Positions 3,147-24,075 of a stretch of DNA of 25,502 nucleotides are shown here, one piece after another. How positions within the stretch are numbered: the first letter of the stretch is position 1; the number at the start of each line of letters is the position of its first letter. The stretch comes from Lentisphaeria bacterium (GTDB taxonomy: Bacteria > Verrucomicrobiota > Lentisphaeria > JABSQK01 > JAWLHB01): NCBI GenBank assembly GCA_041690595.1, contig JAWLHB010000035.1:62001-87502 (forward strand). Direction: 5' to 3'. Under the pieces are notes generated by a model that saw nothing but the letters and a program-made list of their open reading frames with translations, ran no database searches and was not told the origin of the DNA. A program made the position numbers and the translations under genes.

Positions 3147-3152
3147 AGAGCC

Positions 3153-3181
3153 TTGACCGTCCGGCTGGCGGTGGGTATATT
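3153..3181 (+). promoter_or_regulatory. sigma70-type promoter for gatCAB
   Basis: TTGACC (3153-3158), 17-nt spacer, TATATT (3176-3181); GGAG RBS at about 3209-3212 before the gatC ATG. Confidence 0.65.
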
Positions 3182-3220
3182 GACCCTTTTCCCAGATGGA
3201 ACCTACAGGGAGTCTTGCTG

Positions 3221-3538
3221 ATGGCCACACCGGCCCACGACGTGGATATTGCCCATACCGCCCTCCTCGCCCGATTGGAGCTGACGGACGCCGAGAAGTC
3301 CGCCATGCAGCATGAGATCGAAGACATCGTCGGATACGTTCGCCTGCTGCAGGAGGTTGACGTGGATGGCGTGGAGCCGACGGCGCATGCGGCGCCGGTT
3401 CATAACGTTTTCCGCAAGGACGCGAGTGCTCCCTCCATGGCCCATGAGCGCATGATGGACAATGCGCCGGATACCATCGATGACGAGTTGATCAAGGTGC
3501 CGGTCGTTCTGGGCGGCGACGAACCGGGGAGTGCATGA
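3221..3538 (+). CDS. gatC: Asp-tRNA(Asn)/Glu-tRNA(Gln) amidotransferase subunit C
   Basis: [12 protein letters not shown]...[19 protein letters not shown]...NVFRKD...NAPD...KVPVVL. First gene of the gatC-A-B order. ATG at 3221 chosen from RBS spacing. Confidence 0.93.
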
Positions 3539-5016: not shown

Positions 5017-5029
5017 GAGGAGTGCCACC

Positions 5030-8009: not shown

Positions 8010-9339
8010 GGAGGTACTCCTTGGCAAAGTCAGTGATTGTGGGGAGGCTGTCGAGATTCAGGATAGCCACCGCCAGCTCCGCGCGGCCCGTGTTGTCGAC
8101 GAACTTCCGCATCAGCTCTTCGTCGCTGAAGGCTGTTGGATGCAGGACGTCGTCTCGCCGGCGGCTGGCCTCGAGCAGGCGACCATCGCGGGTGTGAAGG
8201 CGGAGGGTCGGCGCACCCGAGGGGTGCGCGACCTCGGAGACCGTGATGCGCTGCGCCAGCTCACTCACCTCTCGATCATTCCGGATCTGCTCCTCGGCGA
8301 TCTCGGCCGGCCCGAAGCGGCGGTACTTGATGGCGGCGGCGACCTCATAGGCAGCGCAGAACTGTGCCTGCTCCTGCGTCGGCTCGGCCGGATCCCATGG
8401 CAGGCCCACAAATGGGCCCGCAACGCCAAAAAGCTCTGCCGAGGTGATCTGATCCGGCCGCAGCTCGTGCTCGTTGACCAGCTCGATGGCGGCTGCAAGC
8501 AGCGGATGACTCCCTCCGCAGCAGGAGAAGCGCTTGAAGCTCAGTCGCTCGATCTGCCAACCCTCTTCCTGGCGGGCGATCACTTCCGGCCCAGGCGCCT
8601 GCTCCGCCTTCGACCCATAAAGCGCATAAAGCCCGGCACTCCCTTCCACGACCCGATGCGCGCCAGTCAGACCGCGTGCGGCAAAGCATGCCGACTCCAC
8701 GCCCGAGCGTGCCGCAATCGCCGGCTGCAGCCGTTTTGCCAGCGTCTGGTCGAAGAGTGCCTGCCGATTTCCACTGAGATGGGCGTACGCCAGACCGAAG
8801 GCATGAGCGGTGACTTCCGGCTTCAGTCCCATCAGTCGTGCCGCCGCTCCGGCCGCACCGAAGACGCCGAAGACCGTGGTGGGCAGAAAGCCGTGGCGGA
8901 AGGGGCCCGCCAGCGCGGGCATCCCCAGACGCGCCGCGACCTCAACACCCATGGCGACCGCCTCCAGAACGGCTTTTCCCGACGCTCCTTCCGACTCCCC
9001 CACCGCCAGGGCCACCGGCACGATCATGCTCGTCAGATGGGTGATGGACGGAATATGCACGTCATCGAGATCGAGTGCATGCACAGCGACGCTGTTGGCA
9101 AAAGCCGCCGCCGGTGCAGGCAGCCGCGCCCCCCGCCACCAGACGGTTGCCTCCGCCCTTCCACTCCAGTCGAGAAGTTGCGTGACCACTTTCTCGACCC
9201 CCGGCGCTCGCCGCCCCGCAAAAGCGCAGCCAACTGCGTCGAGCAGCGCCCGCCGGGAGGCATGCAGCGCGGCCTCCGGCAAATCCCGGGATTCGATCGT
9301 GAAGAATGCCAGAGCCTCGGTAACCGTCAACTCGCGCAT
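7996..9339 (-). CDS. MmgE/PrpD family protein, 447 aa
   Basis: LLDAVGCAFAG, AAFANSVAVHALDLDDVH...H, GVFGAAGAAARL, KRLQPAIAARSG...A.RGLTG, FKRFSCCGGSH. ATG at 9339 with AGGAG RBS. Confidence 0.92.
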   Translation of the reverse strand: MRELTVTEALAFFTIESRDLPEAALHASRRALLDAVGCAFAGRRAPGVEKVVTQLLDWSGRAEATVWWRGARLPAPAAAFANSVAVHALDLDDVHIPSITHLTSMIVPVALAVGESEGASGKAVLEAVAMGVEVAARLGMPALAGPFRHGFLPTTVFGVFGAAGAAARLMGLKPEVTAHAFGLAYAHLSGNRQALFDQTLAKRLQPAIAARSGVESACFAARGLTGAHRVVEGSAGLYALYGSKAEQAPGPEVIARQEEGWQIERLSFKRFSCCGGSHPLLAAAIELVNEHELRPDQITSAELFGVAGPFVGLPWDPAEPTQEQAQFCAAYEVAAAIKYRRFGPAEIAEEQIRNDREVSELAQRITVSEVAHPSGAPTLRLHTRDGRLLEASRRRDDVLHPTAFSDEELMRKFVDNTGRAELAVAILNLDSLPTITDFAKEYLHASA

Positions 9340-9353
9340 GAGCGGGCTCCTTA

Positions 9354-9369
9354 ATTTTGATATTAAAAT
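9354..9369. promoter_or_regulatory. AT-rich palindrome, candidate operator of the ROK regulator
   Basis: ATTTTGATATTAAAAT is a 16-bp palindrome with one mismatched pair. It lies in the divergent PrpD/ROK intergenic region next to the PrpD RBS. Confidence 0.55.
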
Positions 9370-9443
9370 ATAGTGCTGAAACTTCTTCTGCAAGCGCTGT
9401 GATTGCGGGTTCGACATCATTCACGGGTGGAGTATGGTTGAGG

Positions 9444-10610
9444 ATGATCACCGCCCATCAGACAGCCGAGACGGAAGCCATGCTCCTGCGCCAGGTTCGG
9501 CGCGCGGGGGCGATCTCTCGGGTGGAGTTGGCGCGTGCGATCGGCATCACCCCTTCGACGGTGGGCACCTATGTGCAGCGCCTGCTGGCGGGTGGCTATC
9601 TGCGGGAAGGAAGCCGCTTGCCCGGTGAACGCGGCCGTCCGGCCACGCAAGTGAAGCTGAACCCTGCCGCCGGCTTCATGATCGGCATGGATTTCACGCA
9701 TCATTATGTGCGCGTCGTCAGCCTGGACTTTACGGAGCGGGTGCTGGCCCAGGAACGTTCCTGGATTACTGATGCCATCCCCCTCGATGTGGTGCTCGAC
9801 ACGGCACTTCTTCTTGCAAGGACGTGTGCCCGACATGGGCGGGGGGAGCTGCTTGGCATTGGCATTTCCGTGCCGCATCCCGGGGAAAGAGCGCCGCGCT
9901 ATCTCTGCCAGTGGGATTCCGAACGTGTGGTCGCCGCGGTCGGAGAGGCCTTTACCAAGGAGCCGAGGCTGGCAAATAGCGCGCTGGCACTGGCGGCGGC
10001 GGAGCTGTGGTTTGGCGCCGGACGCAAGGTGCCAACTTTTGTCTCGCTGGAAGGACGAGCCTGCATCAGTGCCGGCATCGTCGCCGACGGGCGCCTGCTG
10101 GCGCTCGATCGACCGGGAACTGGCATGATCGGTCATTGGCTTTGCCCGGAAGAGATCCTCCCGGAGAGCTTGAGGCGCGCCGACATGCGCGTCCTCTCCC
10201 TCAATCGACTGGCCTCGATTCCCGGCCTGCTCGACGGATGCAGATTGGCGCTTCAGAATCAGATTCCCTCGCAACTGCGCGACGTGACCGGCGAGCTGCT
10301 CTTCACGCATCTCCGGGAGGCCTGGCTGGCAGGCGATACGCTGGCTGGCGATTGTGTGGATGCCGCCGCGCGGGCGCTTGGCTGGGCCGTGAGTCGACTG
10401 AGCGATCTCGTCGCACCCGAGTTGGTCATTGTCAGCTATCCGCTGGCCACATTGGGGCAGCGCTTCCTCGATCGAATCTCCCAAGCTGCCCACGAACAGG
10501 CCGCCGCGGCTTCGCCCATCGCCGCACCCCGCATTGTCGCCTCGATCCTTGCCGAACATGCGGGCGCGATCGGTGCCGCCGCGGTCGCTCTCCACCACTG
10601 GCGCCCCTGA
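9444..10610 (+). CDS. ROK-family transcriptional regulator (MarR-like wHTH + ROK domain)
   Basis: ISRVELARAIGITPSTVGTYVQRLLAGGYLRE...RGRP; IGMDF; GIGISVP; ISAGIVADGRL; AGAIGAA at the C-terminus. Start uncertain (9444 or 9480). Confidence 0.88.
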   Translation: MITAHQTAETEAMLLRQVRRAGAISRVELARAIGITPSTVGTYVQRLLAGGYLREGSRLPGERGRPATQVKLNPAAGFMIGMDFTHHYVRVVSLDFTERVLAQERSWITDAIPLDVVLDTALLLARTCARHGRGELLGIGISVPHPGERAPRYLCQWDSERVVAAVGEAFTKEPRLANSALALAAAELWFGAGRKVPTFVSLEGRACISAGIVADGRLLALDRPGTGMIGHWLCPEEILPESLRRADMRVLSLNRLASIPGLLDGCRLALQNQIPSQLRDVTGELLFTHLREAWLAGDTLAGDCVDAAARALGWAVSRLSDLVAPELVIVSYPLATLGQRFLDRISQAAHEQAAAASPIAAPRIVASILAEHAGAIGAAAVALHHWRP

Positions 10611-10619
10611 CCGACGTGC

Positions 10620-12125
10620 TCAGACCTTGTAGGGGATGTTGCGCAGGGGGTAGTCCATGAGGATGAGGCGGTCGAGGAGCAGGCGGCGGTGTTCGGCGAT
10701 GACATCCCCATGGTCCGGGTGGTGCCATAGGTTGCGCAGCTCATGGGGATCGTTGAGCAAGTCGTATAGCTCGCCATGGCTTGCGGCCGGATAGAAGGTG
10801 GCTCGCCAGCGCTCGGTGCGGATGGTACGTGCCCAGGTCAGCGGATTGGGCGTCGGATCTTCCGGCCCGCCATCGTAGCTTTCGACATAGGCATAGGCGC
10901 GTCCCGCGCTTTGGTCGTCTCCGGCAAGGAGAGGGAAGTAGCTCTTCCCATCCATGATAGGCGGGGATATCCGGCAGGCCTGCAGCAGGGTTGGCGCCAG
11001 GTCGAGCTGCTCCACGATGTCACCGAGGCGTGCTCCGGCTGGCAATTGCTCCCGCCAGCGGAAGATGAGGGGTGTGCGGATGGCGCTGTCGTAGTGATAG
11101 GCTGACTTGCCGCAAAGCCCGTGATCCCCCAGCAATTCGCCATGGTCGCTGGTGTAGACGATGATTGTTTCCCGCGGATCCAGGCGATTGTCGACAGCTT
11201 CCAGCAGGCGGCCGATCTGGTCGTCCATGAAGGTGATGCCGCCATAGTAGAGCGCCCGCTGATGACGCCAGTCGTCGTCGGTGAATCTTGCCAGGGCCGA
11301 TGCCAGGGCGCGAGTATGGGGCGGCAAGTGGCGAAGCTCCTCATCGTCGCGAACTGGGGAACCGACGTCGGCCGGGTCATACATCTCGGCGTACCGTCGC
11401 GGTGGATCGAAGGGATTGTGCGGATCGACGTAACCCACCCACATGAAGAGCGGGGTGTCGGTGTCATGAAGGTCCAGATACTCGATGGCGCGATCGGTGA
11501 TCCAATGGCTCTTGTGCGCGGCTTCTGGCATGGGCGAACGATGGGCATAGCCCCAGTTGCAGGTCGGGCTGATCTCGTGGGGCGCGACGGCCTGCCTGCG
11601 ACAGCGCTCGACCTCGTCCCGCACGTCATGGCGCCCTTTCCAGAAGTCCGGATTTACCGGCAGGTTGAAGAGGCAGCCGGTCAGATAATCCCGATGTTCT
11701 GGAAATTCCCGCGTCACATAGTCGTAATAAGCGCCGATGGAATTGTCTTCGACGCTTTCGAGATACTGAAAGCCATAGTGCGGAGCCTCGGGCACCCCCC
11801 ACTGATGGGGAACGAAGTGGGTCTTGCCAAAGGCGGCGGTGGCGTAACCTTCATCCGCCAGAAGTGTCGCGAGGGTAGGTACCTCATCGGAGAGGAAGCA
11901 GCCATTGCGGGGGACGCCATTGCGGCGGGTGCCGCAGCCGGTCATCAATCCCGCTCTCGCTGGCGCGCAGACGGGGTTCTGCGAATAGCATCGTTCCATG
12001 ACAACGCCTTCGGCCGCCAAGCGGTCGAGGGTCGGCGTCTGGCAGTGCTCACTGCCGTAGCATCCCATGGCATCCGCGCGATGCTGATCGGAACAGATCA
12101 CAATGACATTTGGCTTTCTCATCAT
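10620..12125 (-). CDS. Formylglycine-dependent sulfatase (choline-sulfatase-like), no signal peptide
   Basis: KPNVIVICSDQHRAD, catalytic CAPAR (CxPxR), GKTH, DPHNPF, YTSDHGELLGDHG, ELYDLLNDPHELRNL. Start at 12125 or 12122. Confidence 0.93.
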   Translation of the reverse strand: MMRKPNVIVICSDQHRADAMGCYGSEHCQTPTLDRLAAEGVVMERCYSQNPVCAPARAGLMTGCGTRRNGVPRNGCFLSDEVPTLATLLADEGYATAAFGKTHFVPHQWGVPEAPHYGFQYLESVEDNSIGAYYDYVTREFPEHRDYLTGCLFNLPVNPDFWKGRHDVRDEVERCRRQAVAPHEISPTCNWGYAHRSPMPEAAHKSHWITDRAIEYLDLHDTDTPLFMWVGYVDPHNPFDPPRRYAEMYDPADVGSPVRDDEELRHLPPHTRALASALARFTDDDWRHQRALYYGGITFMDDQIGRLLEAVDNRLDPRETIIVYTSDHGELLGDHGLCGKSAYHYDSAIRTPLIFRWREQLPAGARLGDIVEQLDLAPTLLQACRISPPIMDGKSYFPLLAGDDQSAGRAYAYVESYDGGPEDPTPNPLTWARTIRTERWRATFYPAASHGELYDLLNDPHELRNLWHHPDHGDVIAEHRRLLLDRLILMDYPLRNIPYKV

Positions 12126-12152
12126 CTCCCGGGCGTTTTTTCTGAAGGTAGA

Positions 12153-12182
12153 CTGGTACATTTCGCAACATAATCTGGTACA
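12153..12182. promoter_or_regulatory. Direct repeat CTGGTACA x2 (22-bp period) upstream of the sulfatase, candidate operator
   Basis: CTGGTACA at 12153-12160 and 12175-12182. The copies flank the -10 of a possible minus-strand promoter GTGACA-N16-TATGTT. Confidence 0.5.
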
Positions 12183-12266
12183 AGAGAATGTCACGATGCA
12201 AGCTCGTCAACTGCCTGCACGCAGCCGTGAAGCGCGGCGTGAATGAAGCGCTTCGTCAAAACACTC

Positions 12267-12294
12267 TTGACTAATTGCAATCAATCGGCAATCT
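12267..12294 (+). promoter_or_regulatory. Putative sigma70 promoter of the first GntR gene, containing the palindrome ATTGCAAT
   Basis: TTGACT (12267-12272)-N16-CAATCT (12289-12294). The imperfect palindrome GACTAATTGCAATCAATC spans the spacer. Confidence 0.45.
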
Positions 12295-12300
12295 TTAAGC

Positions 12301-13338
12301 ATGCACTCACTCGCCAACCCAACCGAGACGATGGCGCTCGAAGCGGATTTGCGGAAGTTCTGCGCCACCACAATGCCCGATACGCCGCTGCTTCCGGAGC
12401 GGCGGCTGGCGGAGCGCTATGGAGTCACCCATGCCGCGGTGCGCAAGGTGCTCAAGCGGCTTCACGATGATGGGGCGATCTATCGCCAGCAGGGGCGGGG
12501 CACCTTTGTCGCGGCCGACCCGGCCACGGAGACAGGGATGCGGACCATTGTCTATGTGGATGTATGGCATCAACTGGCGCATCCGTATTATGTGAGCCGC
12601 CTGCGCGGAATCATGGGCGAGGGCAGGAAGCACCAGTTGAGAATTCAGATGTTCGACGGACCGCCGGTGGAGACGCAGGAGCTTTACGCGGAAGTGGCGC
12701 GCGACGAAGTGGCGGGGGTGATTCTGCCTTACGCGGACGCGAAGCTCGAGCACGAGTTGCGCAATGCCAACGCCCATCTGGCGATTCTATCCACCGGATA
12801 CGCCAGCGCATTGACCACGATCACGCATGTGGTCAGCGATCACCAGAGCCTGGGTGCCATGGCCGCTGCCTACCTCCTGCGGCAGGGGGCAACTCGCCCC
12901 TTCGCGATCTGCGCGCATCAGGAGAGTCAGCATGCTTTCGAGTCAGCATGCGCGGAAGCCGGCGTCAAGGGAGCCACGCTGCGCATGTCAGCGCTTTCCC
13001 CGCGGCCCGACGATGCCGTGCATGCCTGCCGACAGGCCCAGGCGGATGGCATCGCTTTCGACGACGAAGTTCTGGCAGCCGCGGTCCATTCGCGCTTGGA
13101 GGGATTTCACGGACCGCTGATCAGCCAGTTCACCGAAGGCGCGTCACCACCGATGGCCAAGGCGGCGTTGCTGGCCGTGGATGGCCTCAACATGGGACGG
13201 TTGATCTCGCGGACGCTGAACGGCATGATTCATCACGATCTCTATCATAATACCATCGTGCGGGTGCGCCCCCGCCTCATCGACCACACAGAAACCCGCC
13301 GCGGGGAGCCTTTCCCCGCCGAGGAGAGAGCCCCATGA
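12301..13338 (+). CDS. GntR wHTH + periplasmic-binding-fold (LacI-like) transcriptional regulator
   Basis: [41 protein letters not shown] followed by a degenerate LacI-type effector domain (HPYY..L.GI, VAGVIL, HVVSDH..LG..AA.YL, VRPRLI). Confidence 0.88.
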
Positions 13339-14180
13339 AAGCAAGATACCGACAAAGCGCCTTTACTCTGATTGAACTTCTGGTCGTCATTGCCATCATA
13401 GCCATTCTGGCCAGTCTGCTCTTGCCGGCATTGGCCTCGGCTCGTCAGCGGGCGATGATGACAAGCTGCATGGCGAACCTGTCGCAGGTCGGCATGGGAG
13501 CGGCGATCTACGAAGGGGAGTTCAATGTGGTGCCCATCGGCGGGCACACCAACATGCAGGCCTGGGCTCCCAAGCTCTACCTGAATCCGACGGGCCTGAT
13601 GGGGCCGGAGTTCATGATTTTTGCCAGGGAGTATCTGGGAGTGCCGAATCCCAACTGGCTGACCGCCAAACAGCCTCGCGACTTCGGCATCCTGACTTGT
13701 CCGGCCAAAGCCAGTACGCGGCTCATCAACTGGAGCAACGTGCGGAACATCTCCTATATCAATGGCGCGATTGTCAGCCGCTATCAGGCTCAGTATGGAA
13801 CCATCTTCTATCCCCGCGCCAATCCGGGCATGAAGGCCGAACTGGAACGCGTTTATGGTCCCAATGGTCATTACTACAACTTTGGACATCGCTCGCTGCA
13901 GGCGAACGACGCATCCGCGCTGCCATGGCTCTACGATGAAGCCGTCGCTTCCGGTACGGCGGCCTATTATGCGGCCACCAATCAGCCGGGGCAGCACATC
14001 AATCATGGCGGGAATGACGCTCCCCGTCTGAATGCCGCCTATATGGACGGATCCGTCGGCAGTCAGCGGGCCGATTGGAATTGGATGGGCGACTGCTATG
14101 GCATGCGACGATTCGACAGCACAACCTTCCCCGCCTGGTACATGCCCTATATCCGCCGGAGCCCCTTCCCCGCGTTCTGA
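13335..14180 (+). CDS. Prepilin-type N-terminal cleavage/methylation protein (DUF1559/H-X9-DG-like), 281 aa
   Basis: [32 protein letters not shown]...[10 protein letters not shown], internal CPA, C-terminal H...[14 protein letters not shown] overlap with the regulator stop. Confidence 0.9.
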
Positions 14181-14229
14181 GCCACCAGCTCCTCCCGGCA
14201 CCCGAGATCCGTCTGGTCCGTTCGCTACC

Positions 14230-14289
14230 AAGTTGTAGAATGTTTGCAATCTACACTTGCATGTCTGCAGGATAAGTTGTAGAATGTTT
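14230..14289. repeat. Perfect 16-bp direct repeat AAGTTGTAGAATGTTT x2 plus an inverted degenerate copy; candidate operators
   Basis: Copies at 14230-14245 and 14274-14289 (44-bp period). An inverted AAGTGTAGATTG lies at 14247-14258 on the minus strand. Confidence 0.8.
14257..14285 (+). promoter_or_regulatory. sigma70-type promoter of the second GntR-LacI/pilin operon
   Basis: TTGCAT (14257-14262)-N17-TAGAAT (14280-14285); GGGAG RBS before ATG 14313. The -10 lies inside the second direct repeat. Confidence 0.7.
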
Positions 14290-14312
14290 TAATTACAAAC
14301 GGGAGCTGCTGG

Positions 14313-15437
14313 ATGAAACGGTCGAAGCGTGACGAGGTATTGGAGCTGCTGCGGCGGGAGCTTGCTTCCGGCCGCTACCCTGCCGAGTCGTTGCTGCCGT
14401 CGGAGAACGAGTTGCGGGAGCAGTGGGGGATCAGCCGCAACACCATCCGCGAGGCGGTCTCGGTGCTTGTGCAGGAAGGGCTGGTGGAGCGACGGAGGGG
14501 TAGCGGCACACGGGTGGTTGCAACCGAGTCCACCCTGCGAAGCTGTCTGCTGATCGTCCGCACAACCGGTGACTTGTACGAGCGCCAGGCCCAGGACCTG
14601 CAGCGTTACCTTCAGGAGCGGGGCGTCATTCCGATGATCTTGCCGTTGCCGGACGATGGCGAAGCCGCGATCATTGACCTGCGCTCCGGGCTGCGGTATG
14701 CCTCCGCGCACAGGATGGACGGGTTGATTGTGCATGGGCTTCCGAACGAGGTGCGGGAGTTTCTGACGACGGCGCGGTCAACGCTCTCGACCGTGATCGT
14801 GAATGAGGGCGTCAGCGATTTGCCGCACGCCGTGAATCAGATTGTGGCCGACCACTTCCGCGGCGCTCGCCTCGCCACCCACCATCTCCGGAAGCTTGGC
14901 CATGAGCGCATCCTCGCCGTCATCCATCGCTACAACTTCCTTTCACCCGGTCGGGCCATCCATCAGGCGCGGGGGGTCTATGGCGATCTCATCCGGGGTT
15001 ACATCGAGGGGCTGGATGGTGAGTCGCCCCACTATCATTTCATCGATCGTGAATTTCTCGATTCGCAGGATGTCGAAGGACTGCGCCGGCAACTTCGTGG
15101 TCCCCGCCGACCGACAGCAATCTTTGCCGTCGGCGACTATCGGGCAAAGGCGGTGATCGATATTGCCGGTCAGCTCGGTCTGCGGGTCCCCGAGGAACTG
15201 GCGGTGGTTGGTTACGGCAACACCCCGTGGGCGACTCTGGGGCAGTTGCCGCTGACGACGATAGAACACCACTATGAGCGCATCGCCGAACTTGCCGTCG
15301 AGCAGCTTTTCCCATCGCAGGCGCCGGAGTTCTCGCCAACGACCCGCATCGTAGAACCGGAACTGGTGGTACGCACGTCGTGTGGCGCCAGGATTGTACC
15401 TTCATCCTTTTCTTCACGTCGCATTCGCCAAGCCTGA
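14313..15437 (+). CDS. GntR wHTH + LacI-type sugar-binding domain regulator (AraR-like architecture)
   Basis: LPSENELREQWGISRNTIREAVSVLVQEGLVERRRGSGTRV; DGLIV, ADHFRGARLATHHL.KLGHERI, PTAIFAVGD, GLRVPEELAVVGY, PLTTI, PELVVRTSC. Confidence 0.93.
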   Translation: MKRSKRDEVLELLRRELASGRYPAESLLPSENELREQWGISRNTIREAVSVLVQEGLVERRRGSGTRVVATESTLRSCLLIVRTTGDLYERQAQDLQRYLQERGVIPMILPLPDDGEAAIIDLRSGLRYASAHRMDGLIVHGLPNEVREFLTTARSTLSTVIVNEGVSDLPHAVNQIVADHFRGARLATHHLRKLGHERILAVIHRYNFLSPGRAIHQARGVYGDLIRGYIEGLDGESPHYHFIDREFLDSQDVEGLRRQLRGPRRPTAIFAVGDYRAKAVIDIAGQLGLRVPEELAVVGYGNTPWATLGQLPLTTIEHHYERIAELAVEQLFPSQAPEFSPTTRIVEPELVVRTSCGARIVPSSFSSRRIRQA

Positions 15438-15479
15438 AAGCAGGCTGCCCAAGATCCACCAACCACAGGGAGCCACGCC

Positions 15480-16316
15480 ATGAACCTCCGCCGCCGTCGA
15501 TTTACCTTAATCGAACTTCTCGTTTGTGTCGCCATCATCGCCATTCTGGCGTCAATGCTGCTGCCGGCCCTGAGTAAGGCCAAAGACAAGGCAAGATCCA
15601 GCACCTGCATCAACAATCAGAAAGGGCTCGGGATGGCCATGGCCATGTATACTGGCGATTGGGACGGCAACTATCCGTACGCCAATCCTGCCACGGGCTT
15701 CAGCAACTGGAGCAATCCATGGCCGTGGCGTATGGCCATTGCCGAGTATGCCGGCGGATACAGCTGGCTTCAAAAACCGAAGCAACTCTTCTGCCCATCC
15801 AACCCGTTTGCCCCGTGGATCTCTTCCGATAACCAGGGCAGGCCACCAAGCACCTACGCCATGAATTCGTCGGCATTTCCCGCCAACTGGCACGATCAGT
15901 CGGGCATCAATCCCCTGCTGCCAGGCAACACCCATCGCTACCTGCACCCGATGAAGGATAGCCGCCTGCTCGATTCCTCCGGCGTCCTGCTACTCGGGGA
16001 GGTGCCGCAGGGCGACGCCAGCCAGAACCCAGCCTTCAAATCCCTTCCCAATCATCGCAAGTACATCGCCTCCAACGACTTGAATGCTACCGTCTTCTGG
16101 ATATGGGCGTATCCCGAGTATTGGGTGACGGAGACCATCGCGGTGGGCTCCTGGGGGCCGCCAATGGCTCAGGTCCCACACAATCTGGGATGGAACTCCC
16201 TCCTTGCCGATGGCCACGTGCGGGCGGATTCCCGTAATAAGCTGATCGGGCTTTCGCGCCCCCTCTATGTTGGCCAGACCAAGCGCGAGGGCAACCTCTT
16301 CTGGCAGAATAGATGA
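15480..16316 (+). CDS. Prepilin-type N-terminal cleavage/methylation protein with H-X9-DG motif (DUF1559-like), 278 aa
   Basis: [59 protein letters not shown]; exact H-X9-DG in [15 protein letters not shown]. Confidence 0.93.
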
Positions 16317-19300
16317 CCTCGACGGCAGACAGGTTGAGAAACTCCGCCAGTCGCCATCGTCTTCGGCTGCTGATCCTGCTCATCTGTCTGGCAGCGGGCG
16401 CCCAGGAAACCGCCTGGCCGGGGGAGTTCCACTTGCCTGGCGTGCCTTTGCCGGGCCCAGGTTTTGCCGGCGATGCGGGCTTCATGGTGATGGACTGGAA
16501 CAGCGACGGGCTCCCCGATCTCTTCATCGATGACACGGGCTCCGTCGGCCGAGGCACCATCTACCTCAATGTGGGAACACGGACGGAGCCGCGCTTCGAC
16601 CACGGCATCCCGTATCCGTTCAACTGCACCGAGACGGTGCCGCAGACGGTGGAGCATCTGATCGCCAGAAGCTGGTGCGACCTCAATCACGATGGTCTCC
16701 CGGACCTGATCCTGTACGATGGGCAACTGCGCTATGCCCCCAATACGGGAGCGCCGCAACGCCCGTACCATTGGCAGCTTTGGCCCGAGAGACCCCACCA
16801 TTTCCCTGCGAGCGAAAGCATGATCCGGGAGAATGCACGCTTTGCCACCGGCCCGGAGAGCATGTTCTGGCAGAAAGGAATCTTTGCCCGGCAGGTGATC
16901 ACCTTTACCGCCGCCGATTGGGATGGGGATGGGCTGGAGGATCTCCTGATCTGCCGCTTTCGCGACGAGGCCCCCGGCGCCGAATCGCTCGGAATGCATG
17001 AGCAATGGACCCCATGGGGACGGCGCGCTTTGCGGCCTCCCGCCGAACCTGGGGTTGCCGAGCCCGACCAGCGCTACCTCGCCCCGCTGACCGAAGCCCC
17101 CGCTCGCGGACTGTACTTCTACCGCAACAGTGGTACGGCCGGAGCGCCGCACTTCGATGCGGCCGTGGAGATCCTCACCCCAGACGGTCAATCCGTTGCC
17201 GCTCCCAATCCCGTCGTGGCCGATCTCGATGGCGACGGCGTCCCGGACCTGCTGGCGACGGAAACCGCCTACACCTCGAACGCCTTTCGGGTGGATTGGC
17301 CGACCCGCCCGAATGCCGTATGGTTCCGCCGGCCGGGCGCCTCACCGGGGATCCTCGAAGAACCCCGAGATCTCGTCCAAGCTGACGGCACGGCCATCGC
17401 GGCGGGAACGATGCTGCGCGTCGCCGATCTTGGCGGCACGGGGGCCGGCGATCTCCTGGTAATGGACGCGATTCCCAAGGGTGGCATCCGCTGGTATCGC
17501 CGCGAAGCCGGAGACACACCGGCTTTCGCTCCACCGATCGAGCTGCGCGGACAGGATTTCCCGCGCTTCGATTTCAGCGTTCAGCCCTTGGTCGTCGACT
17601 GGTTTGGCCCCAACTCGCGCGACCTGCTCCTGCACGGAATCACCGATCATCACTGCAAATGGGGCCTGAACCGCACGGCCCTCTTCCGCAACACCAATCC
17701 TGCGCCGGGAGCGCCCCGGTATCGGTTCGAGGGGTACCTCACCTGGCGCGGTGATCCCAGCCTGGTTCCTGTTTCCGAACAGGAGCGGCAGTACGAGTGC
17801 TATGGCAGCGCCATCGCGGTCGCACCGGCCGCGGCCGATGGGCGACGATCCATCTTGGCGAGCATTGGCGGCAAGCATTTCTGGCTGAGCGATCTGGCGG
17901 AGGACGGGCTCACCTTCCAGCACCTCGAACGGCTGGATATCCCGAACACTTCGAACCGTCTTCGCGGCTGGCAGGAGATCGCCATCGAGGTGGACTTCCC
18001 GGTGCGCTATCTTCGGCTCGGCAACGACCGCAACGGCATGGGGAATCTGCGCGACAGCATGCTGCACCTGCTCCACCTGGAGATCTGGTCCGGCGATCGC
18101 AACCTGGCCACCCCCGAGCTGCTCAAGATCGAGAAGACCAATACCGAAACCGTCCGCTGGTACCAGATCCAACGACCCGCCAACTTCCTCGATCCGCAAA
18201 ACGCCAATACCGACCGGGAACTGCGGGCCACCTCGTGGGGGTACTTCATCGGCCCTGCCATCATCACCCTTGCCGAGGCTGCCCGCCTCGACCGCGTCCG
18301 CTTCCTGCTTTCCGAACGAGACAGTGGCTGGTACGAGTGGCTGGTACCCTTCTCGTGGCAGGGCAAGATCTTTCGGATGGGCTGCGAAATCGGTGAACCA
18401 TGGTACCAGTACGTGCTGGAGGTCTCACCGGACGGCGAAAACTGGACGCCCGTTGTCAACCGCATGACTACCGAGATGATGTACAGCCATCCGCGCCTGC
18501 TGGATTGGGATGGCGATGGCCGTGTCGACCTGCTTCTTGGCGTCACTTCCGCCAATGGCATCTATCCCAGTACCAAGAGCTACCGCCTCTACCGCAACGA
18601 CGGCACCAACGAGCGGCCCCGCTATCGCGACCATACGGTCGCCACCCTCGCCGATGGAAAAGAGCTGCGGATGCAGGCAGAGTGGCTGGCCACCACCGCC
18701 AACCAAGGTGGCATTGTCCCCTTCGATATCGATGGCGATGGTGCCCTCGACCTCGTTGTGGAAGCACACGCAGGTGGGGAACTGCGCTGGTTCCGCCAGG
18801 TGGGCGACTTCCAGTTCGAGCCTGGCGGCAGCCTCAACGCCGATGGCAAGACCATCCGCTACGCCAGCCGCAACCGCTTCTTCGACATCGCCGATGTCGA
18901 TGGTGACGGAAGTCTGGATCTGTTGAGCAGCAGCGACGGCAAACTCTCCTGGTTCAAGGGCGGGAGCGTGACCCCTGCCGGTGAAACAACCATGCCCGAA
19001 TCCCAAACGATGCTGCTTCCACAGACGGCCGAGACGTTGGGCGAGAGCGATCAGCGGGTTCTGACCGTTCGCGCCCAGAACACCAAGGGTGAAGATGCCC
19101 GCTACGTCCGCCTCTCCTTCCCACCACTACCGAAGGACGCGACCTTCGAGCGCGTCGAGCTGCGCCTCTGCGCCGACCACCGCACGCAAGTGGATCCGAA
19201 CCTCCTCGTGCCGCGGCTGACCGATGAGATCGCCTGCCTCGAACTGCCCAGCGCCGAGGCAGACGATCCGGCGACCGGCGGGCGCTTCCTGGCCTTCGCG

Positions 19301-19507
19301 CCCCCCGTCTTCACCATTGGCGCCGCTCTTTGGCGGAGTTGGGAGATCACGGAGGCGGTCCGCGCGGCACAACGCGATGGTCGCACCCTCCATCTGCTGC
19401 TCCGCTTCGAGTATACGGGGCCGTATGTGGCGGGCGCCCGGAATACCTTTGCTGGCCTCGCCTGGCCCGATGCCGAACGGCGGCCCCATCTGCTTCTCAC
19501 CCGCTAA
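16313..19507 (+). CDS. Secreted FG-GAP/VCBS-repeat beta-propeller protein with discoidin-like insert and C-terminal DNRLRE-like domain, 1064 aa
   Basis: Signal-like N-terminus ([17 protein letters not shown]); about 9 DxDxDGxxDL-type repeats ([70 protein letters not shown] and degenerate copies) with YxNxGT..PxF blades; ATGA overlap with the pilin gene. Confidence 0.85.
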
Positions 19508-19521
19508 CGGAGAGTTTATCC

Positions 19522-21669
19522 ATGAGCTGCGTCCGTCTCTGCCTGCTGCTCCTTCTCACGGCATTTGGCCTCAGCGCCGACGAACCGATTACCCGCCCCC
19601 GCTTCCTGGCCGAATTCGGTCCAGTAACCAACGCCACCGAGGCAGCGGCGACCTGCCGGCTCGCGCTGGAGCAGCTGACCCGCGATGGTGGGGGAATCCT
19701 GATCCTCCCGGTGGGAACGCCCCAAGGCTGGGAAGCGGAAAACATCAGCCAGGAGGCGTGGCGGGAGCCCGCGCCGCCGGCGCCCACAACGCGTTGGGGG
19801 GCCGGTGCAGGCGTCACCATCATCGACTATCGCCAAGGGCATCCCAAGGTGACAGTGCCTCAGCTCAGCGGCCTCCAGTTGGCCCGGATCTACTCCCTGC
19901 CGCCGGGGCAGAGTTCACCACACTGGGAGATGCACCCGCTACTCAATCTCAAGAACACCGTTCTGCGTGGCTCGACCAGCTATCGCGAGCCCCTTGTCGA
20001 TGCGGTGGAGCCCGGGGAGAACCAGCGCTTCTACGTGCGGACCCTGCGCGGACTCTTTCCGGGCATCTTCCTGAACACCGGCGATGCCGGGCGGATCAAT
20101 CGGCTCTATGTCAGGGAGCTTGGCTTCGATGCCGTGCGCGGTCTCCCCTACTTCACCGCCGATGTCACCATCCCCGTCAACGAGGGGAGCTATGTGCACA
20201 ACAAGACACATGTCAACGCCTTGCGCATCGAAACGAATGCCCACACCGAGGAACAAACCTTCGACGTGATGAACTGGCGGCGGCAATACTCGCAGGGCGA
20301 CAGCTACATGTACGACGCCCGCTTCATGTACATGAGTGACGTTCATTCCACGGGTGGCGATGAGAACGGCGTGCTCTACGCGGCCTTCGTCGTGGGCGAA
20401 AGCAACATTTTCCGCGGCAAGGTGCGAATCTATGATCCCGAGCGGCGCGAGCTGGTCTACGAGGCGGCGGCAAATGCTCACACGCTGGGCAGCGGCCGTC
20501 CGATCATCAATCTCAATCCCGCCAAAACCATCAGCGAGGGCAGCTGCTACATCCTCAGTCCCGGTGGCGCTCTGCTGGGCTGGGGCGGGCAGATCCGGTC
20601 GACCGATGCGCCATGGGGGCCGGAGTTGGTCGGGCGCTGGTTCGCCGTGGACGAGCCGACGGAGTATGTGCCCGGCGGCCGACAGGTGCGTCGCTGGTGG
20701 TACATCACTACCTTCGCCGAAAACGATGGCGTCAAATCCCTCTCCATCCAGCGCCACTGGTGGGGAGCCAAGGACAAGGGCTCCATCTCGCGGCTCTATC
20801 TGCCGGAGCACTTCAGCAGCGACGAGAAGGAACCGCGACTCCTGCGCTACATCATCGCGCCCGGCGCCAATCTCCTCGATGTTTCGCGCGGCGTGCGTCC
20901 CGGGCCAGAGCACAGCGGCGGTGCCGCCGAACGGCTCCTCGTCCTCAGCCCCGCTCCCCACGACGGAGGCGAGTTCGATTTCGCGCCCGGAGATCCCATC
21001 GAGCAGGCCATCGGTCCGGATCCCTTTCGCCCAATCCCCTTCCGCACCTGGCTCTTCGAGAACGTTCCGGGCGCCTTCCCCGCTCCAGTCTTCGACATCG
21101 CCAATATGGGCGCCATCGCCCGCGACACTGTCTTCTCCGTCCGCGGTGGGGCAGGCAGCCTGGTCGAATGCGAGACGCGCGCCGATCGTTCCCCTCCCTG
21201 GGGCGATATCCTGCGGATCGACAGCGCCGCCAGGCGCGGCCTGATCTTCAATGCCGACATACAGACCGCCATCCTCTTCACTCAGCCCAACGAGCGCACC
21301 CAGCCGATGCAGTGGCGGCACAGCGGCAATCAGCGGACCGAACTGACCGTCTCTCCGACCGATGGGGTCATGCGGATCAGCGGCTCGGGGCTCGAGGTCG
21401 CCGGTGGGATCCGCCAGGCAGGCGGCCTCAGCGGTGAGGCGACGCCAGCTCGCAATCTGCGCGGCAAGAACCTCCTGATACCGGCTGGCGCCGTGGAGTT
21501 CACCGTCACCTTTCCGCGTCCCGAAGCCGATGCCGACTATGCGCTCTTCCTGGAGCAAAGCTGGCTCGGCAACCGCGCCATCCGCGAACAGGCCGCCACT
21601 GGCTTCACGGTCATCTTCGACCAGCCCGCGCCCCCCAATGCCAGGCTCCACTGGATGCTCGTGCGCTGA
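19522..21669 (+). CDS. Secreted hypothetical protein, 715 aa, with pectate-lyase-3/tailspike-like N-terminal cap and tail-fibre/lectin-like C-terminal domain
   Basis: ATG at 19522 after GGAG; signal peptide MSCVRLCLLLLLTAFGLSA|DE; codon style matches neighbouring genes. Domain calls are by-eye resemblance only. Confidence 0.75.
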   Translation: MSCVRLCLLLLLTAFGLSADEPITRPRFLAEFGPVTNATEAAATCRLALEQLTRDGGGILILPVGTPQGWEAENISQEAWREPAPPAPTTRWGAGAGVTIIDYRQGHPKVTVPQLSGLQLARIYSLPPGQSSPHWEMHPLLNLKNTVLRGSTSYREPLVDAVEPGENQRFYVRTLRGLFPGIFLNTGDAGRINRLYVRELGFDAVRGLPYFTADVTIPVNEGSYVHNKTHVNALRIETNAHTEEQTFDVMNWRRQYSQGDSYMYDARFMYMSDVHSTGGDENGVLYAAFVVGESNIFRGKVRIYDPERRELVYEAAANAHTLGSGRPIINLNPAKTISEGSCYILSPGGALLGWGGQIRSTDAPWGPELVGRWFAVDEPTEYVPGGRQVRRWWYITTFAENDGVKSLSIQRHWWGAKDKGSISRLYLPEHFSSDEKEPRLLRYIIAPGANLLDVSRGVRPGPEHSGGAAERLLVLSPAPHDGGEFDFAPGDPIEQAIGPDPFRPIPFRTWLFENVPGAFPAPVFDIANMGAIARDTVFSVRGGAGSLVECETRADRSPPWGDILRIDSAARRGLIFNADIQTAILFTQPNERTQPMQWRHSGNQRTELTVSPTDGVMRISGSGLEVAGGIRQAGGLSGEATPARNLRGKNLLIPAGAVEFTVTFPRPEADADYALFLEQSWLGNRAIREQAATGFTVIFDQPAPPNARLHWMLVR

Positions 21670-21818: not shown

Positions 21819-22241
21819 GTGAAGTATCTTGAAACTATGATGCAGGAGCATCCCATGTCCGTCTCGGCTGAACTTCCAGCGTTGACAGCCTGCATCGAGG
21901 CCTGCTTCGACTGCGAGCAGAGCTGCAGTTCCTGTGCGGACGCCTGTCTGGCTGAAGAGATGGTCGAGGACCTGCGCACCTGTATCCGTACGGATCTGGA
22001 TTGCGCGGATATCTGTGGCACTACCGGCCGCATTCTCTCCCGGCAGACCAATCCCGACTGGAACGTGATGCGTGCGCAGGTTCAGGCCGCTGCCCTGACG
22101 GCGCAGAATTGCGCGGATGAATGTGAGAAGCACGCCAACATGCATGAACACTGCCGCATCTGCATGGAGGCATGTCGCCAGTGTGAGACGAGCTGCAACC
22201 GCCTGCTCGACGATCTGATGAGTCTGGCAACGGCTGCTTGA
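21819..22241 (+). CDS. Four-helix-bundle copper storage protein (Csp3/DUF326 type), cytoplasmic
   Basis: CIEACFDCEQSCSSCADACLAE...CIRTDLDCADIC...CADECEKHANMHEHCRICMEACRQCETSC: 16 Cys in CxxxC/CxxC spacing with HxxxHEHC. No signal peptide. GTG start after GGAGG. Confidence 0.93.
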   Translation: MKYLETMMQEHPMSVSAELPALTACIEACFDCEQSCSSCADACLAEEMVEDLRTCIRTDLDCADICGTTGRILSRQTNPDWNVMRAQVQAAALTAQNCADECEKHANMHEHCRICMEACRQCETSCNRLLDDLMSLATAA

Positions 22242-22402: not shown

Positions 22403-23995
22403 TCAGGCTGGGAGGGAGTAACGGGTGAGAACCTGGCGGAGATTGTCGCCGAGAATGAGGCGCTTTTGCGCTGGGGAAAGGCGGGCAAAGAGGATGGGGC
22501 CGAGTCCCCAGGCGATGGGGAGGTCCTGCAGATCGCTGCCGAACATGAAGCGGTCGGCGCCGATGGCATCGACTACGGCTTCGCATTCACCGGGAGCGAG
22601 GAGTGGACAGGAGCAGACGTAGAGGTTCTTGTGCCGTTGCATTACTTCCGCGTACGCCGTGGTGGTGTGGCCGGTAAAGAAGCAGGCCTGATGATAGGTG
22701 GAGATGAGGCGCTCCATCTGCTCGGGGCCGCCCCAGTAGTGATTGAGGATGAGCTGGCGATGCTCGTGTGCCCAGCGACAGGCCACATCGATGAGCGGCC
22801 CTTCCTCGGGATAGCCCTGATAGCTGGGGATGAGCTTGATGCCTCGGAGGCCGGCAGCCTGCGTGCGCTCCAATTCGCGGATCATCTCCCGCTCGCCGCG
22901 ATGGGGACTCAGCATGGTGAAGCCGACAAACTTGTCGGGATAGCGCTGTACAGCCTCGATTACCAGATCGTTGCCGGGCTGCTCATCGCTGAAGACGCCG
23001 GTAAAGCAGAAGACGCAGCCCTTCTCCACGCCCAGGCGATTCATGTCGGCGACGATTCCCTCGAGATCGCAGTTGGGCAGATGGTAGTGGCAGGACTTGC
23101 CGCCGATGTGGCCGTGGTTGTCGGCAAAGGTCATCTCCGCCGGACGCACGCCGCTCTGGCCGAAGGCGACGAAGGGGTCGGCGGGCTCGGGCAGCTCGAC
23201 GGCGGGATGCTCGGCTTCGCACCAGGCGATGAGACGGCGCATGGTGTCGCCGGCAATGAGGCGCTTGTCATCATCCGAAATATCGGCGGTGGTGAGGGTG
23301 GCGAGGGTGTGACCGCATCCCATCCTGGGCCAGTTGCTGCCGTAGACGAGGCGGCGGGCGCCCCAGTGCGAGGTAATGTACTCGATCCCTCGGTGCAGCC
23401 AGTAGCCGCTCAGTTCTACGTGCAGATTCTCGCAAGCATCGAAGGCGCGGTAGATCGTCCGGTTACCGCGGCGAATGCGGAATTCATTGACGATGATCGG
23501 CAGCTCGGGCCATCGCCTGCAGAGGGCGACGATGGCGCTCCAGTCGGCCTCATCGGTGCCGAAGCCGGCCCGCTGCACTTCGTTGAAGTTGAGGAAAATG
23601 GGGATGCGGACCTCGGCCAGTGGTTCGAGCAGCGAGTCGATGCACCAGTCATCGAGGGTGAAGCGATACTGGCGAGGGAAGAGGGCGAGGGCGCCGACCT
23701 TGTGTTGCCGCATCAGCGCGATCAGCTCGTCGGGCGGTGGCTGTTCATCGGCGGCGCCAGTCGGCAGCGCCGACCAGACGGGATGGAGGCGGGGGTGAGC
23801 ATCGGTGGTTGCCAGGATGCGGCAGTTACCTTCGGCCGGGTGATTTTCGCGGGCAAGGGAGTCGAAGACGAGGGCTTCACTGACCCCGAAATGATCCATG
23901 TCGGCCAGGAGGTGGTCCGCTGAATGCAGGCCGTCTTCCTGAAGTTTGAGATGGCGACCAAGCTGACAGAAGGCGTCGAGTATGTTGAAGCTCAT
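22403..23995 (-). CDS. Tandem two-domain amidohydrolase (Amidohydro_2-like TIM barrel x2)
   Basis: Two homologous halves: MDHFGVSEA...GN..IL / MNRLGVEKG...GND.VI; GARRLVYGSNWP / GADRFMFGSDL; DKRLIAGDTMRRL / QKRLILGDNLRQV. DxHxH is intact (DNHGH) only in the second half. Start at 23995 (ATG) or 24007 (GTG). Confidence 0.88.
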   Translation of the reverse strand: MSFNILDAFCQLGRHLKLQEDGLHSADHLLADMDHFGVSEALVFDSLARENHPAEGNCRILATTDAHPRLHPVWSALPTGAADEQPPPDELIALMRQHKVGALALFPRQYRFTLDDWCIDSLLEPLAEVRIPIFLNFNEVQRAGFGTDEADWSAIVALCRRWPELPIIVNEFRIRRGNRTIYRAFDACENLHVELSGYWLHRGIEYITSHWGARRLVYGSNWPRMGCGHTLATLTTADISDDDKRLIAGDTMRRLIAWCEAEHPAVELPEPADPFVAFGQSGVRPAEMTFADNHGHIGGKSCHYHLPNCDLEGIVADMNRLGVEKGCVFCFTGVFSDEQPGNDLVIEAVQRYPDKFVGFTMLSPHRGEREMIRELERTQAAGLRGIKLIPSYQGYPEEGPLIDVACRWAHEHRQLILNHYWGGPEQMERLISTYHQACFFTGHTTTAYAEVMQRHKNLYVCSCPLLAPGECEAVVDAIGADRFMFGSDLQDLPIAWGLGPILFARLSPAQKRLILGDNLRQVLTRYSLPA

Positions 23996-24021
23996 GCGAT
24001 TGCTCACTGCTGAACGGTTGA

Positions 24022-24054
24022 AGCGGAGACACGCGCCCGGCGTGTCTCCGCTAC
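24022..24054 (-). repeat. Perfect 13-bp stem hairpin beginning with GTAG; REP-like element
   Basis: AGCGGAGACACGC (24022-24034), loop GCCCG, GCGTGTCTCCGCT (24040-24052). The minus strand reads GTAGCGGAGACACGC... Confidence 0.6.
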
Positions 24055-24075
24055 TGTATCGCGAATCAGGAACGC

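Follow-up and report, generated by a model that had tools for sequence, protein, structure and literature searches.

What is a pilin gene doing between the gene for a sugar-sensor-type regulator and those for large exported proteins? The question is raised by a window of 25,502 nt (positions 62001-87502 of contig JAWLHB010000035.1, here C35) in the Lentisphaeria bacterium assembly GCA_041690595.1, where two cassettes, each opening with a GntR/LacI-type regulator followed by a DUF1559-like prepilin, lie beside a divergent sulfatase gene. Two wider questions meet in it, namely the role of the DUF1559/H-X9-DG proteins and the passage of polymers across the outer membrane without SusC/D in Lentisphaeria, Verrucomicrobia and Planctomycetes; a fixed regulator-pilin-exoprotein cassette makes both testable locus by locus. 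An earlier note on this DNA had proposed that the variable pilin heads are sugar-induced, substrate-specific capture subunits on a shared machine, analogous to Sus systems and possibly serving a sulfated glycan. The open reading frames (ORFs) it named, their strands and both ATGA gene overlaps are all present, and the ORFs scanned from 10620 to 21669 include no TonB receptor, SusD, ABC permease or pilus-assembly gene, as it had stated.

The host genome (8.1 Mb, 97% complete) was annotated with a custom hexamer model, which gave 5,651 genes at 89% coding and reproduced the window genes, some with misplaced starts. A profile of the prepilin N-terminus retrieved 208 ORFs, among them 170 long-head pilins like those of the window; the regulator set was seeded from the window and from the families topping the list of enrichment in pilin neighbourhoods. 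Proteins were called secreted, or devoid of a signal peptide, by a crude custom rule that underlies all such counts below. A GntR/LacI-type regulator gene lay directly 5′ of the pilin gene on the same strand for 59 of the 170 pilins, compared with 1.2 ± 1.1 under the null (maximum 6 in 1000), and a large secreted or DUF4838-type protein was encoded directly 3′ of 57, compared with 6.2 ± 2.4. The genome-wide adjacency expected in the earlier note is thus borne out. Counted from the other side, a pilin was the first gene after 59 of 130 sugar-sensor-type regulators. GntR/LacI-type regulators, DUF4838-type proteins and secreted families of 1,100-1,300 aa topped the list of families clustering near pilins (best p 7e-14). 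Runs of three or four different pilin genes also occur between one regulator and one large secreted protein (C2 g321-g324; C1 g61-g63).

Such an order could arise without any functional tie, if the pilin genes had merely travelled with mobile catabolic islands, or coded for variable surface antigens that spread along with these. The diversity of the heads, which form 128 clusters among the 170 pilins at 60 bits, would fit this, as would the variation of the neighbours from locus to locus and the position of the window cassettes amid unrelated catabolic genes. However, the slot of the pilin, immediately behind the regulator, is fixed: when the null was restricted to genes no more than five away from a regulator, 59 of 111 pilins had one directly 5′, five times the 11.8 ± 3.0 expected (maximum 23 in 5000). 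The two genes overlapped by ATGA at 20 of the 59 junctions between regulator and pilin; for all close junctions on one strand across the genome, the figure was 552 of 3701. The order is also found in five further genomes from four families, and we regard a mere passenger role as very improbable. These five genomes of the class were chosen because earlier searches had matched them, and each has at least 150 matches to the pilin helix. Among their 30 best-scoring pilin loci (flanks of 1.5 kb, truncated by a contig end in one case), a regulator was directly 5′ in 13, with all five genomes represented; it was separated by a gap in one more and was divergent in two. The gene architecture is real both genome-wide and class-wide, around a known family of unknown function.

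The genes that follow the pilins are often carbohydrate-related. From 126 eligible pilin loci, 40 were drawn randomly and the first 20 scanned with Pfam, together with 20 control loci drawn away from pilins. Among the 51 proteins encoded 3′ of the pilins, 25 were carbohydrate-related, 18 had no Pfam family, 8 were of other types and none was a transporter. Named glycoside hydrolase (GH) or carbohydrate-binding module (CBM) families accounted for 15 of the 25 (GH20, GH35, GH42, GH78, GH123, GH2_N and CBM9); the remaining 10 carried DUF4838, DUF4434, DUF4861, PA14, LamG, GlcNAc epimerase or sulfatase domains, which we class as carbohydrate-related. Only 1 of 41 control proteins qualified, or 3 if two doubtful ones are counted. 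Counted by locus, 14 of 20 qualified beside pilins and 1-2 of 20 among the controls (Fisher p 4e-5 to 2e-4), in line with the proposal that these pilins stand beside catabolic genes. With 18 of 51 downstream proteins outside any Pfam family, the cassette is also a marker for catabolic loci and new enzymes in such genomes. The DUF4838-type family (71-88 secreted proteins of ~800 aa) was the most pilin-enriched one, with 38 of 71 near pilins, and its members are candidate new glycoside hydrolases.

Across the 170 paralogues, Glu5 and the entire N-terminal helix were near-invariant, and Cys36, Cys98, Tyr50, His227, Asn232, Asp237 and Gly238 were 81-100% conserved. The motif was a strict H-X9-DG in 73 and had a spacing of 8-14 in 61 more. 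Trp and Tyr made up 10.3% of the heads, versus 5.9% of large secreted proteins and 7.1% of 26 other prepilins, and 91% of the heads lay above the 95th percentile of the large secreted proteins. A composition rich in Trp and Tyr is typical of binding surfaces. Head type tracks locus content: among pilin pairs whose heads matched with at least 100 bits, 9 of 18 had a homologous neighbour in common, against 386 of 14,221 unrelated pairs (2.7%).

Within the window, the full form of the cassette is cassette 2, made up of a regulator, a pilin and two lectin-domain exported proteins. It is preceded on the + strand by two identical 16-nt direct repeats (14230-14245 and 14274-14289, spacing 44), each with a TAGAAT hexamer, which we read as a candidate operator. 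The repeats have no third exact copy anywhere in the genome; by eye, a half-site resembling them sits 5′ of a paralogous regulator gene on contig C10. A promoter scan returned two sites where 1.1 ± 1.2 were expected, none of them before regulator 2. If the repeats are an operator, cassette 2 would probably be its own transcription unit. The single locus with repeated copies of the earlier note is not supported: the window holds two separate cassettes, the second probably with its own operator. Regulator 2 (14313-15437, + strand, 374 aa) is a GntR-LacI fusion of the AraR type that passes both GntR (PF00392, E 8.6e-20) and Peripla_BP_3 (PF13377, E 1.2e-21) and matches the effector domain of the arabinose repressor (3tb6, E 2.5e-13). 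The prepilin-like protein 2 (pilin 2; 15480-16316, + strand, 278 aa) has a strict H-X9-DG motif and matches PF07963, TIGR02532 and PF07596, the latter over residues 33-90 only (32.3 bits, cut-off 23.3); its gene overlaps that of a 1064-aa exported protein by ATGA.

An AlphaFold2 model of pilin 2, the one pilin modelled (50 sequences; pLDDT 91.8, pTM 0.88), placed a long N-terminal helix (residues 3-53) with Glu5 on a beta-sheet head. All of its top 24 structural matches were type IV pilins or pseudopilins, the best being PilA4 (6xxd; Z 4.8, root mean square deviation [rmsd] 3.5 over 121 aligned residues). As modelled, the protein thus has the core of a type IV pilin, into which large Trp/Tyr-rich segments are inserted. 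Strands 230-235 and 240-244 flank the Asp-Gly of the motif, which falls on a beta-hairpin in the conserved part of the fold, so that a structural role is at least as likely as a ligand pocket there; we infer that it forms a hairpin turn. A search with pilin 2 hit 184,742 cluster representatives at E≤0.001, mostly via the common N-terminal helix. Its head had no match in the 300 other genomes of the class that were searched, and a head profile did not match the GspG-like proteins of the host genome (probability 0.7%).

Cassette 1 is the minimal form, a regulator and a pilin. Regulator 1 (12301-13338, + strand, 345 aa) joins a GntR winged helix (PF00392, E 5.6e-11) to a divergent LacI-type effector domain that remains below the Pfam threshold (PF00532, E 0.004, 17 bits for a cut-off of 22.2). 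Its gene overlaps by ATGA that of the DUF1559-like pilin 1 (13335-14180, + strand, 281 aa), which scores above cut-off for PF07963 and TIGR02532, has no PF07596 match at E≤0.01 and carries H-X13-DG rather than H-X9-DG. The Atlas neighbours of pilin 1 (0.95-0.96) are hypothetical proteins of Lentisphaerota and Verrucomicrobiota, with PF07596 on 12% of the members in one cluster. A paralogue of regulator 1 in the same genome (g3018, 175 bits) is likewise encoded directly 5′ of a pilin, and in two other genomes a paralogue of the pilin-1 type is accompanied both times by one unnamed enzyme family and an FAD oxidoreductase, in changed gene order. No secreted partner gene is predicted in cassette 1. 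Neither window pilin matched the 22-position TIGR04294 at E≤0.1; genome-wide, this model gave 14 matches among 150 scored out of 327 candidates, none of them in the window. Both regulator-prepilin pairs of the earlier note are therefore present, but its labels apply fully only to the second: regulator 2 has both GntR and LacI-type domains and pilin 2 the strict motif. Nor are the pairs duplicates of each other. Alignment between the two pilins is limited to residues 6-64 (53%), and that between the two regulators to the helix-turn-helix (30% of 76 aa), which rules out a tandem duplication.

The machine to which such pilins might belong is encoded elsewhere, as had been supposed. With genes named by eye and from the positions of their Pfam matches, there are a complete type II secretion system (T2SS) operon on C53, another set of pseudopilin genes on C28, a cluster resembling pilB-pilB-pilT-pilC on C9, secretin clusters on C2, C7 and C37, and a single prepilin peptidase gene on C11; in total, the genome has 6 secretin matches, 8 strong PilB/GspE-type ATPases, GspF/PilC matches and one PilD. 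Dedicated importers are few beside the 130 sugar-sensor-type regulators: 4 TonB receptors, 12 SBP_bac_1 proteins, 2 SSF genes and 16 MFS genes. SusD (PF07980) had no match in this 97% complete genome, while the control was positive in Bacteroides, and none of the 4 TonB receptors was within three genes of a pilin. These counts agree with the earlier idea of a Sus analogue. In the window itself, only lectin/CBM-like domains and a sulfatase were found and no glycoside hydrolase or lyase family. With no recognisable hydrolase, the window is a poor example of a substrate locus, though a good structural one.

A rival reading is that the pilins are never assembled. If the prepilin helix stayed uncleaved, it would serve as an inner-membrane anchor, and the proteins would act in periplasmic substrate binding or signalling beside generic transporters, with no filament involved. 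The classical G|F prepilin cleavage site needs a small residue before Phe, and 156 of the 170 pilins have a residue other than Gly there; no assembly gene lies in or beside the cassette. Proteins with a Sec-like N-terminus also carry a related C-terminal domain (g4718); two such 580-aa paralogues with a DUF1559-like C-terminal domain are encoded at C46:45981-49490, by short pilin-like and GspF-like genes. Two-domain proteins of Tuwongella fractionate unlike plain pilins and are mostly Triton- or SDS-soluble (PMC8567305). Gly is scarce in the other prepilins as well (2 of 25), implying either a relaxed peptidase or many uncleaved proteins, but the genome's own T2SS pseudopilins have Arg, Ala and Gln at this position, which points to the former. 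Moreover, the near-invariance of Glu5 and the N-terminal helix is what an assembly constraint predicts, and the leaders are short and basic, with Lys or Arg in the last six places in 160 of 170. On balance, we think it unlikely that the pilins stay unassembled. In place of Gly, the prepilins of the genome, T2SS pseudopilins included, mostly carry Arg, Ser, Ala, Thr, His or Pro. Their one PilD (C11:11189-12445) has a long hydrophilic insertion ahead of its second catalytic motif and may possibly be a peptidase with relaxed specificity.

The two exported proteins of cassette 2 raise the other possibility, that the ligand of the head is a protein. The 1064-aa protein (16313-19507, + strand) has a likely signal peptide and seven FG-GAP calcium-binding motifs (PF13517, E 1e-26) that probably form a beta-propeller. 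There are weak to moderate indications of an F5/8-like insertion and, at the C-terminus, a DNRLRE/CBM96-like domain: within its family of 39 members, F5_F8_type_C was found in 10 and CBM96 in 7 at E≤0.01, the window protein matching neither, one homologue is named DNRLRE-domain protein, and the C-terminal part has a profile match to 7vbo (E 0.0034). Its 38 close homologues include some named from Planctomycetes and Armatimonadota, and it had no match in the 300 other genomes of the class searched. A TcdB_toxin_midN Pfam match covers the FG-GAP repeat at 846-889, with no stretch passing alone; we read it as a cross-match and not as the sign of a toxin.

The 715-aa protein (19522-21669, + strand) has a likely signal peptide and no Pfam family; 288 homologues were found, and 16 of 301 genomes, the host included, gave matches. 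In its AlphaFold2 model (pLDDT 83.4), mature residues 613-696 form a six-stranded beta-sandwich of the H type, with middling Z-scores of 6.4-8.8: they resemble the Pam1 tailspike (7eea; Z 8.8, rmsd 2.1 over 70 residues), discoidin I (Z 6.5) and Helix pomatia agglutinin (Z 6.4). A barrel at 133-211 resembles a phage tail tube protein (Z 9.1) and depolymerase insertion domains (Z 6-7.8). As modelled, the protein has a phage-tailspike-like build with an H-type-lectin/tail-fibre-tip fold at its C-terminus, and the stretches modelled with low confidence would agree with parts that need a trimer to fold. The H-type fold in phage fibres need not bind sugar. Sequence searches of the PDB with the 1064-aa and 715-aa proteins gave no clear match, and no catalytic family was found in either. 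Their domains and models make glycan binding plausible for both, so the earlier description of secreted glycan-binding proteins stands in part for cassette 2 and has no counterpart in cassette 1. A 715-aa paralogue at C17:124206-128665 stands divergent to the gene for one of the four TonB-dependent receptors, in pilin-free surroundings.

Minor pilins are known to display tip adhesins, and the pilin head might likewise be a cargo adaptor that binds the neighbouring large exoproteins and either delivers these to the T2SS or presents them on a pilus. The complete T2SS operon would allow this. A predicted secreted protein is encoded in the same-strand run of 112 of the 170 pilins, and the gene of pilin 2 is translationally coupled to that for the 1064-aa protein. 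A pilin 2 paralogue on C10 (49% identical) adjoins paralogues of regulator 2 and of the 715-aa protein, and homologues of the latter have a pilin directly 5′ in 9 of the 18 regions drawn from 15 other genomes, two of these genomes being of a common genus. Where next genes were similar at 500 bits or more, the pilins were related in 5 of 9 pairs. This proportion, however, fell to 1 of 17 at 200-500 bits; none of the 9 pilins preceding 715-aa homologues was of the pilin-2 subfamily, and a third pilin-2 paralogue has neither secreted partner nearby. Of 80 metagenome loci, 4 held full-length relatives of the 1064-aa protein: a pilin adjoined one, two with full 10-kb flanks were pilin-free, and one was short. 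These surveys rule out a strict pairing of pilin and partner: with pilins of other subfamilies before the 715-aa homologues and 1064-aa loci that lack a pilin, pilins pair with kinds of loci and have no fixed partner. A common C-terminal secretion tail was also ruled out, as the exoprotein tails group by family only. Finally, 58 of the 170 pilins, pilin 1 included, have no predicted secreted partner, which a substrate as ligand fits better than a protein cargo. A complex prediction for pilin 2 and the 715-aa protein scored 0.00 without folded controls, which gives no verdict and is not evidence. Taken together, a cargo adaptor seems to us an improbable role for the head.

The sulfatase (10620-12125/12194, - strand; PF00884, E 3.6e-48; C-x-P-x-R present) is divergent from regulator 1 and without signal peptide, as the earlier note had described it, and is of the formylglycine type. 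The sulfated-glycan substrate that it suggested found no support. For 15 of 170 pilins a sulfatase gene was no more than three genes away, where 11.6 ± 3.1 were expected by chance (p 0.16), and with the null drawn inside regulator neighbourhoods the figures were 11 and 10.3 (p 0.47), i.e., no enrichment by either measure. Regions homologous to pilin 1/regulator 1 elsewhere had a sulfatase in 3 of 7, and the window sulfatase was the best in-genome match for none of them. The data thus do not support the sulfatase as part of the design, and we dropped the sulfated-glycan reading; the sulfatase is a neighbour whose membership in the cassette is unsupported. Only 3 of the 76 sulfatases of the genome have a signal peptide, odd for a polysaccharide degrader, and this suggests that sulfate is removed in the cytoplasm.

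Gene order, enrichment, neighbours, machinery genes, fold and composition together make it most likely, with a probability we put at roughly 0.45, that each pilin head is specific for the substrate of its own locus and captures it on a shared machine. Each cassette would be a catabolic unit. Its GntR/LacI-type repressor, judging from the family, would sense the substrate or a breakdown product and control the adjacent operon, which often starts with a DUF1559-type pilin. As the N-terminal helix is near-invariant, the single PilD could serve as peptidase for all 170 paralogues, each of which could then enter the common T2SS/type IV pilus machine. The head would present hypervariable Trp/Tyr/Asn/Gly-rich loops on a conserved scaffold and bind the substrate of its locus, and extension and retraction of the (pseudo)pilus would hold this substrate at the surface or pull it through a secretin into the periplasm. 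There, the co-encoded large exported proteins would act on it. The analogy for this route is with ComP-type minor pilins, which act in DNA uptake. The pilin would thereby take the specificity slot held by SusD in Bacteroidota. The substrate need not be sulfated, nor always be a polysaccharide. While the gene order is observed, we infer regulation, processing, assembly, binding and uptake. The central idea of the earlier note came through all tests run on it apart from the sulfatase link.

Several observations weigh against this interpretation. No regulator is directly 5′ of 111 of the 170 pilins, 6 of the 20 sampled pilin loci had no carbohydrate family, and a pilin neighbours the 1064-aa protein in just one of its four full-length metagenome loci. 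The type IV pilin fold and the variable, aromatic-rich head support the earlier note, but every structural Z-score of pilin 2 is below 5, because the pilin core is spread among large insertions, and Foldseek against the PDB returned nothing at E≤0.001. Aromatic-rich surfaces also bind proteins, not just sugars. Neighbours common to similar pilins can stem from whole-locus duplication, which accounts for part of the link between head type and locus content. Gly precedes the N-terminal Phe in only 14 of 170 pilins (Ala in pilin 1, Arg in pilin 2), an objection that the non-Gly residues of the T2SS pseudopilins soften and do not remove. Some ordinary transporters are within three genes of a pilin (4 of 12 SBP, 4 of 16 MFS and 1 of 2 SSF genes, for a baseline of 15% of all other genes). 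DUF1559 genes of Rhodopirellula respond to cold, salt and heat and are called solute-binding (PMC2754498), and two such genes are essential in Planctopirus (PMC10632474), which indicates that the family has other roles too.

The window also holds genes outside the two cassettes. An argininosuccinate-lyase-family lyase (best PDB match 6g3d), an MmgE/PrpD protein (best PDB match an iminodisuccinate epimerase) and a divergent ROK regulator occupy 6486-9339 (- strand) and 9444-10610 (+ strand). Taking 6g3d to be an ethylenediaminedisuccinate (EDDS) lyase, the block 6486-10610 is likely to serve catabolism of aminopolycarboxylates resembling iminodisuccinate (IDS) or EDDS; a paralogous lyase and a PrpD fragment are found among sulfatases on C1. 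Downstream of cassette 2 are a small Cys-rich DUF326 four-helix protein (21819-22241, + strand), presumably of the copper-storage type, and a DegT-family aminotransferase followed by a two-domain amidohydrolase (22403-25398, - strand), these last two enzymes having paralogues near other pilin loci. At the other end, an AAA_21 (AbiEii-type) ATPase (274-1398, - strand) and a small downstream gene that crosses the window start form a possible defence pair, and an MFS transporter followed by gatC-gatA-gatB (1899-6469, + strand) makes up an ordinary housekeeping block. The nine top-scoring matches of this GatB (54-57%) come from Lentisphaeria and Victivallales, and by this one marker the host is most likely a member of the Lentisphaeria.

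Among known systems, the closest is the N_methyl + SBP_bac_10/DUF1559 family (PF07963 + PF07596; TIGR04294) of the Planctomycetes-Verrucomicrobia-Chlamydiae (PVC) bacteria, which has the same prepilin N-terminus, Cys pair, C-terminal His/Asn/Asp-Gly motif and expansion to more than 100 copies. Tuwongella has 91 N_methyl + DUF1559 proteins, 25 of them in the proteome, often flanked by signal-peptide genes (PMC8567305), and Planctopirus has 68 DUF1559 paralogues of unknown function (PMC10632474). The window pilins are divergent members, neither matching TIGR04294 and one only matching PF07596, and they differ by their fixed slot after a sugar-sensor-type regulator and before a glycan-processing exoprotein, a placement absent from what is accessible of these descriptions. 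A search of the full-text literature, with subscription papers mostly outside it, found no description of a regulator-pilin-exoprotein cassette. Other reports touch on glycan uptake in these bacteria: in Planctomycetes, gold-labelled dextran was seen on pili-like fibres, with dextran accumulating in the periplasm (PMC5394234), the carbohydrate-active enzyme clusters lack functional characterisation (PMC11131199), and T2SS was up in one strain of Planctomycetota on fucoidan, the main text and five supplementary files of that source containing no pilin or DUF1559 term (PMC11685898).

With type IV pilins and T2SS pseudopilins, pilin 2 has in common the N-terminal helix (3-53) and the pilin core (PilA4 Z 4.8, ComP Z 4.2, EpsG Z 4.0). 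Unlike in PilA4, EpsG/PulG and ComP, its head is about twice as large, with variable insertions, and the genes lie away from assembly operons. Regulator 2 has the two domains of Bacillus AraR and matches its effector domain, but the host genome has 90 such GntR-LacI regulators, and the effector domain of regulator 1 is below cut-off. In the same phylum-level group, the Akkermansia locus MUL2 links a type IV-like pilus system with the attachment and uptake of glycans (PMC13174399; also treated in bioRxiv 10.64898/2025.12.30.696933). MUL2, however, is one four-gene locus with a PilM protein and an archaeal-type pilin that encodes machinery, whereas the cassettes encode none, exist in dozens of copies and have their own regulators; the window ORFs scanned include no PilM-like gene beside an archaeal-type pilin, and no genome search for MUL2A was made.

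More generally, PVC bacteria without Sus might import glycans by a retractile type IV filament with more than 100 interchangeable, individually induced substrate-binding pilins, which would draw the substrate through a common secretin. We hold this to be a doubtful, though not far-fetched, extension of the proposed capture by pilin heads; if true, it would be a third general route of nutrient uptake across the outer membrane, beside TonB receptors and porins, and would give the DUF1559 family a function. The polysaccharide-utilisation loci (PULs) of Bacteroidota each have a sensor-regulator, a specificity protein and exported enzymes. Like these SusC/SusD systems, the pilin cassettes form many parallel loci, each with its own regulator, a hypervariable candidate specificity protein and exported glycan-processing enzymes. 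Unlike them, they have no susC/susD pair in the window, no SusD match and no TonB receptor near pilins (0 of 4), and there is no dedicated channel per locus, for which a common secretin would have to serve. The cassette at most works like a PUL, and is not one.

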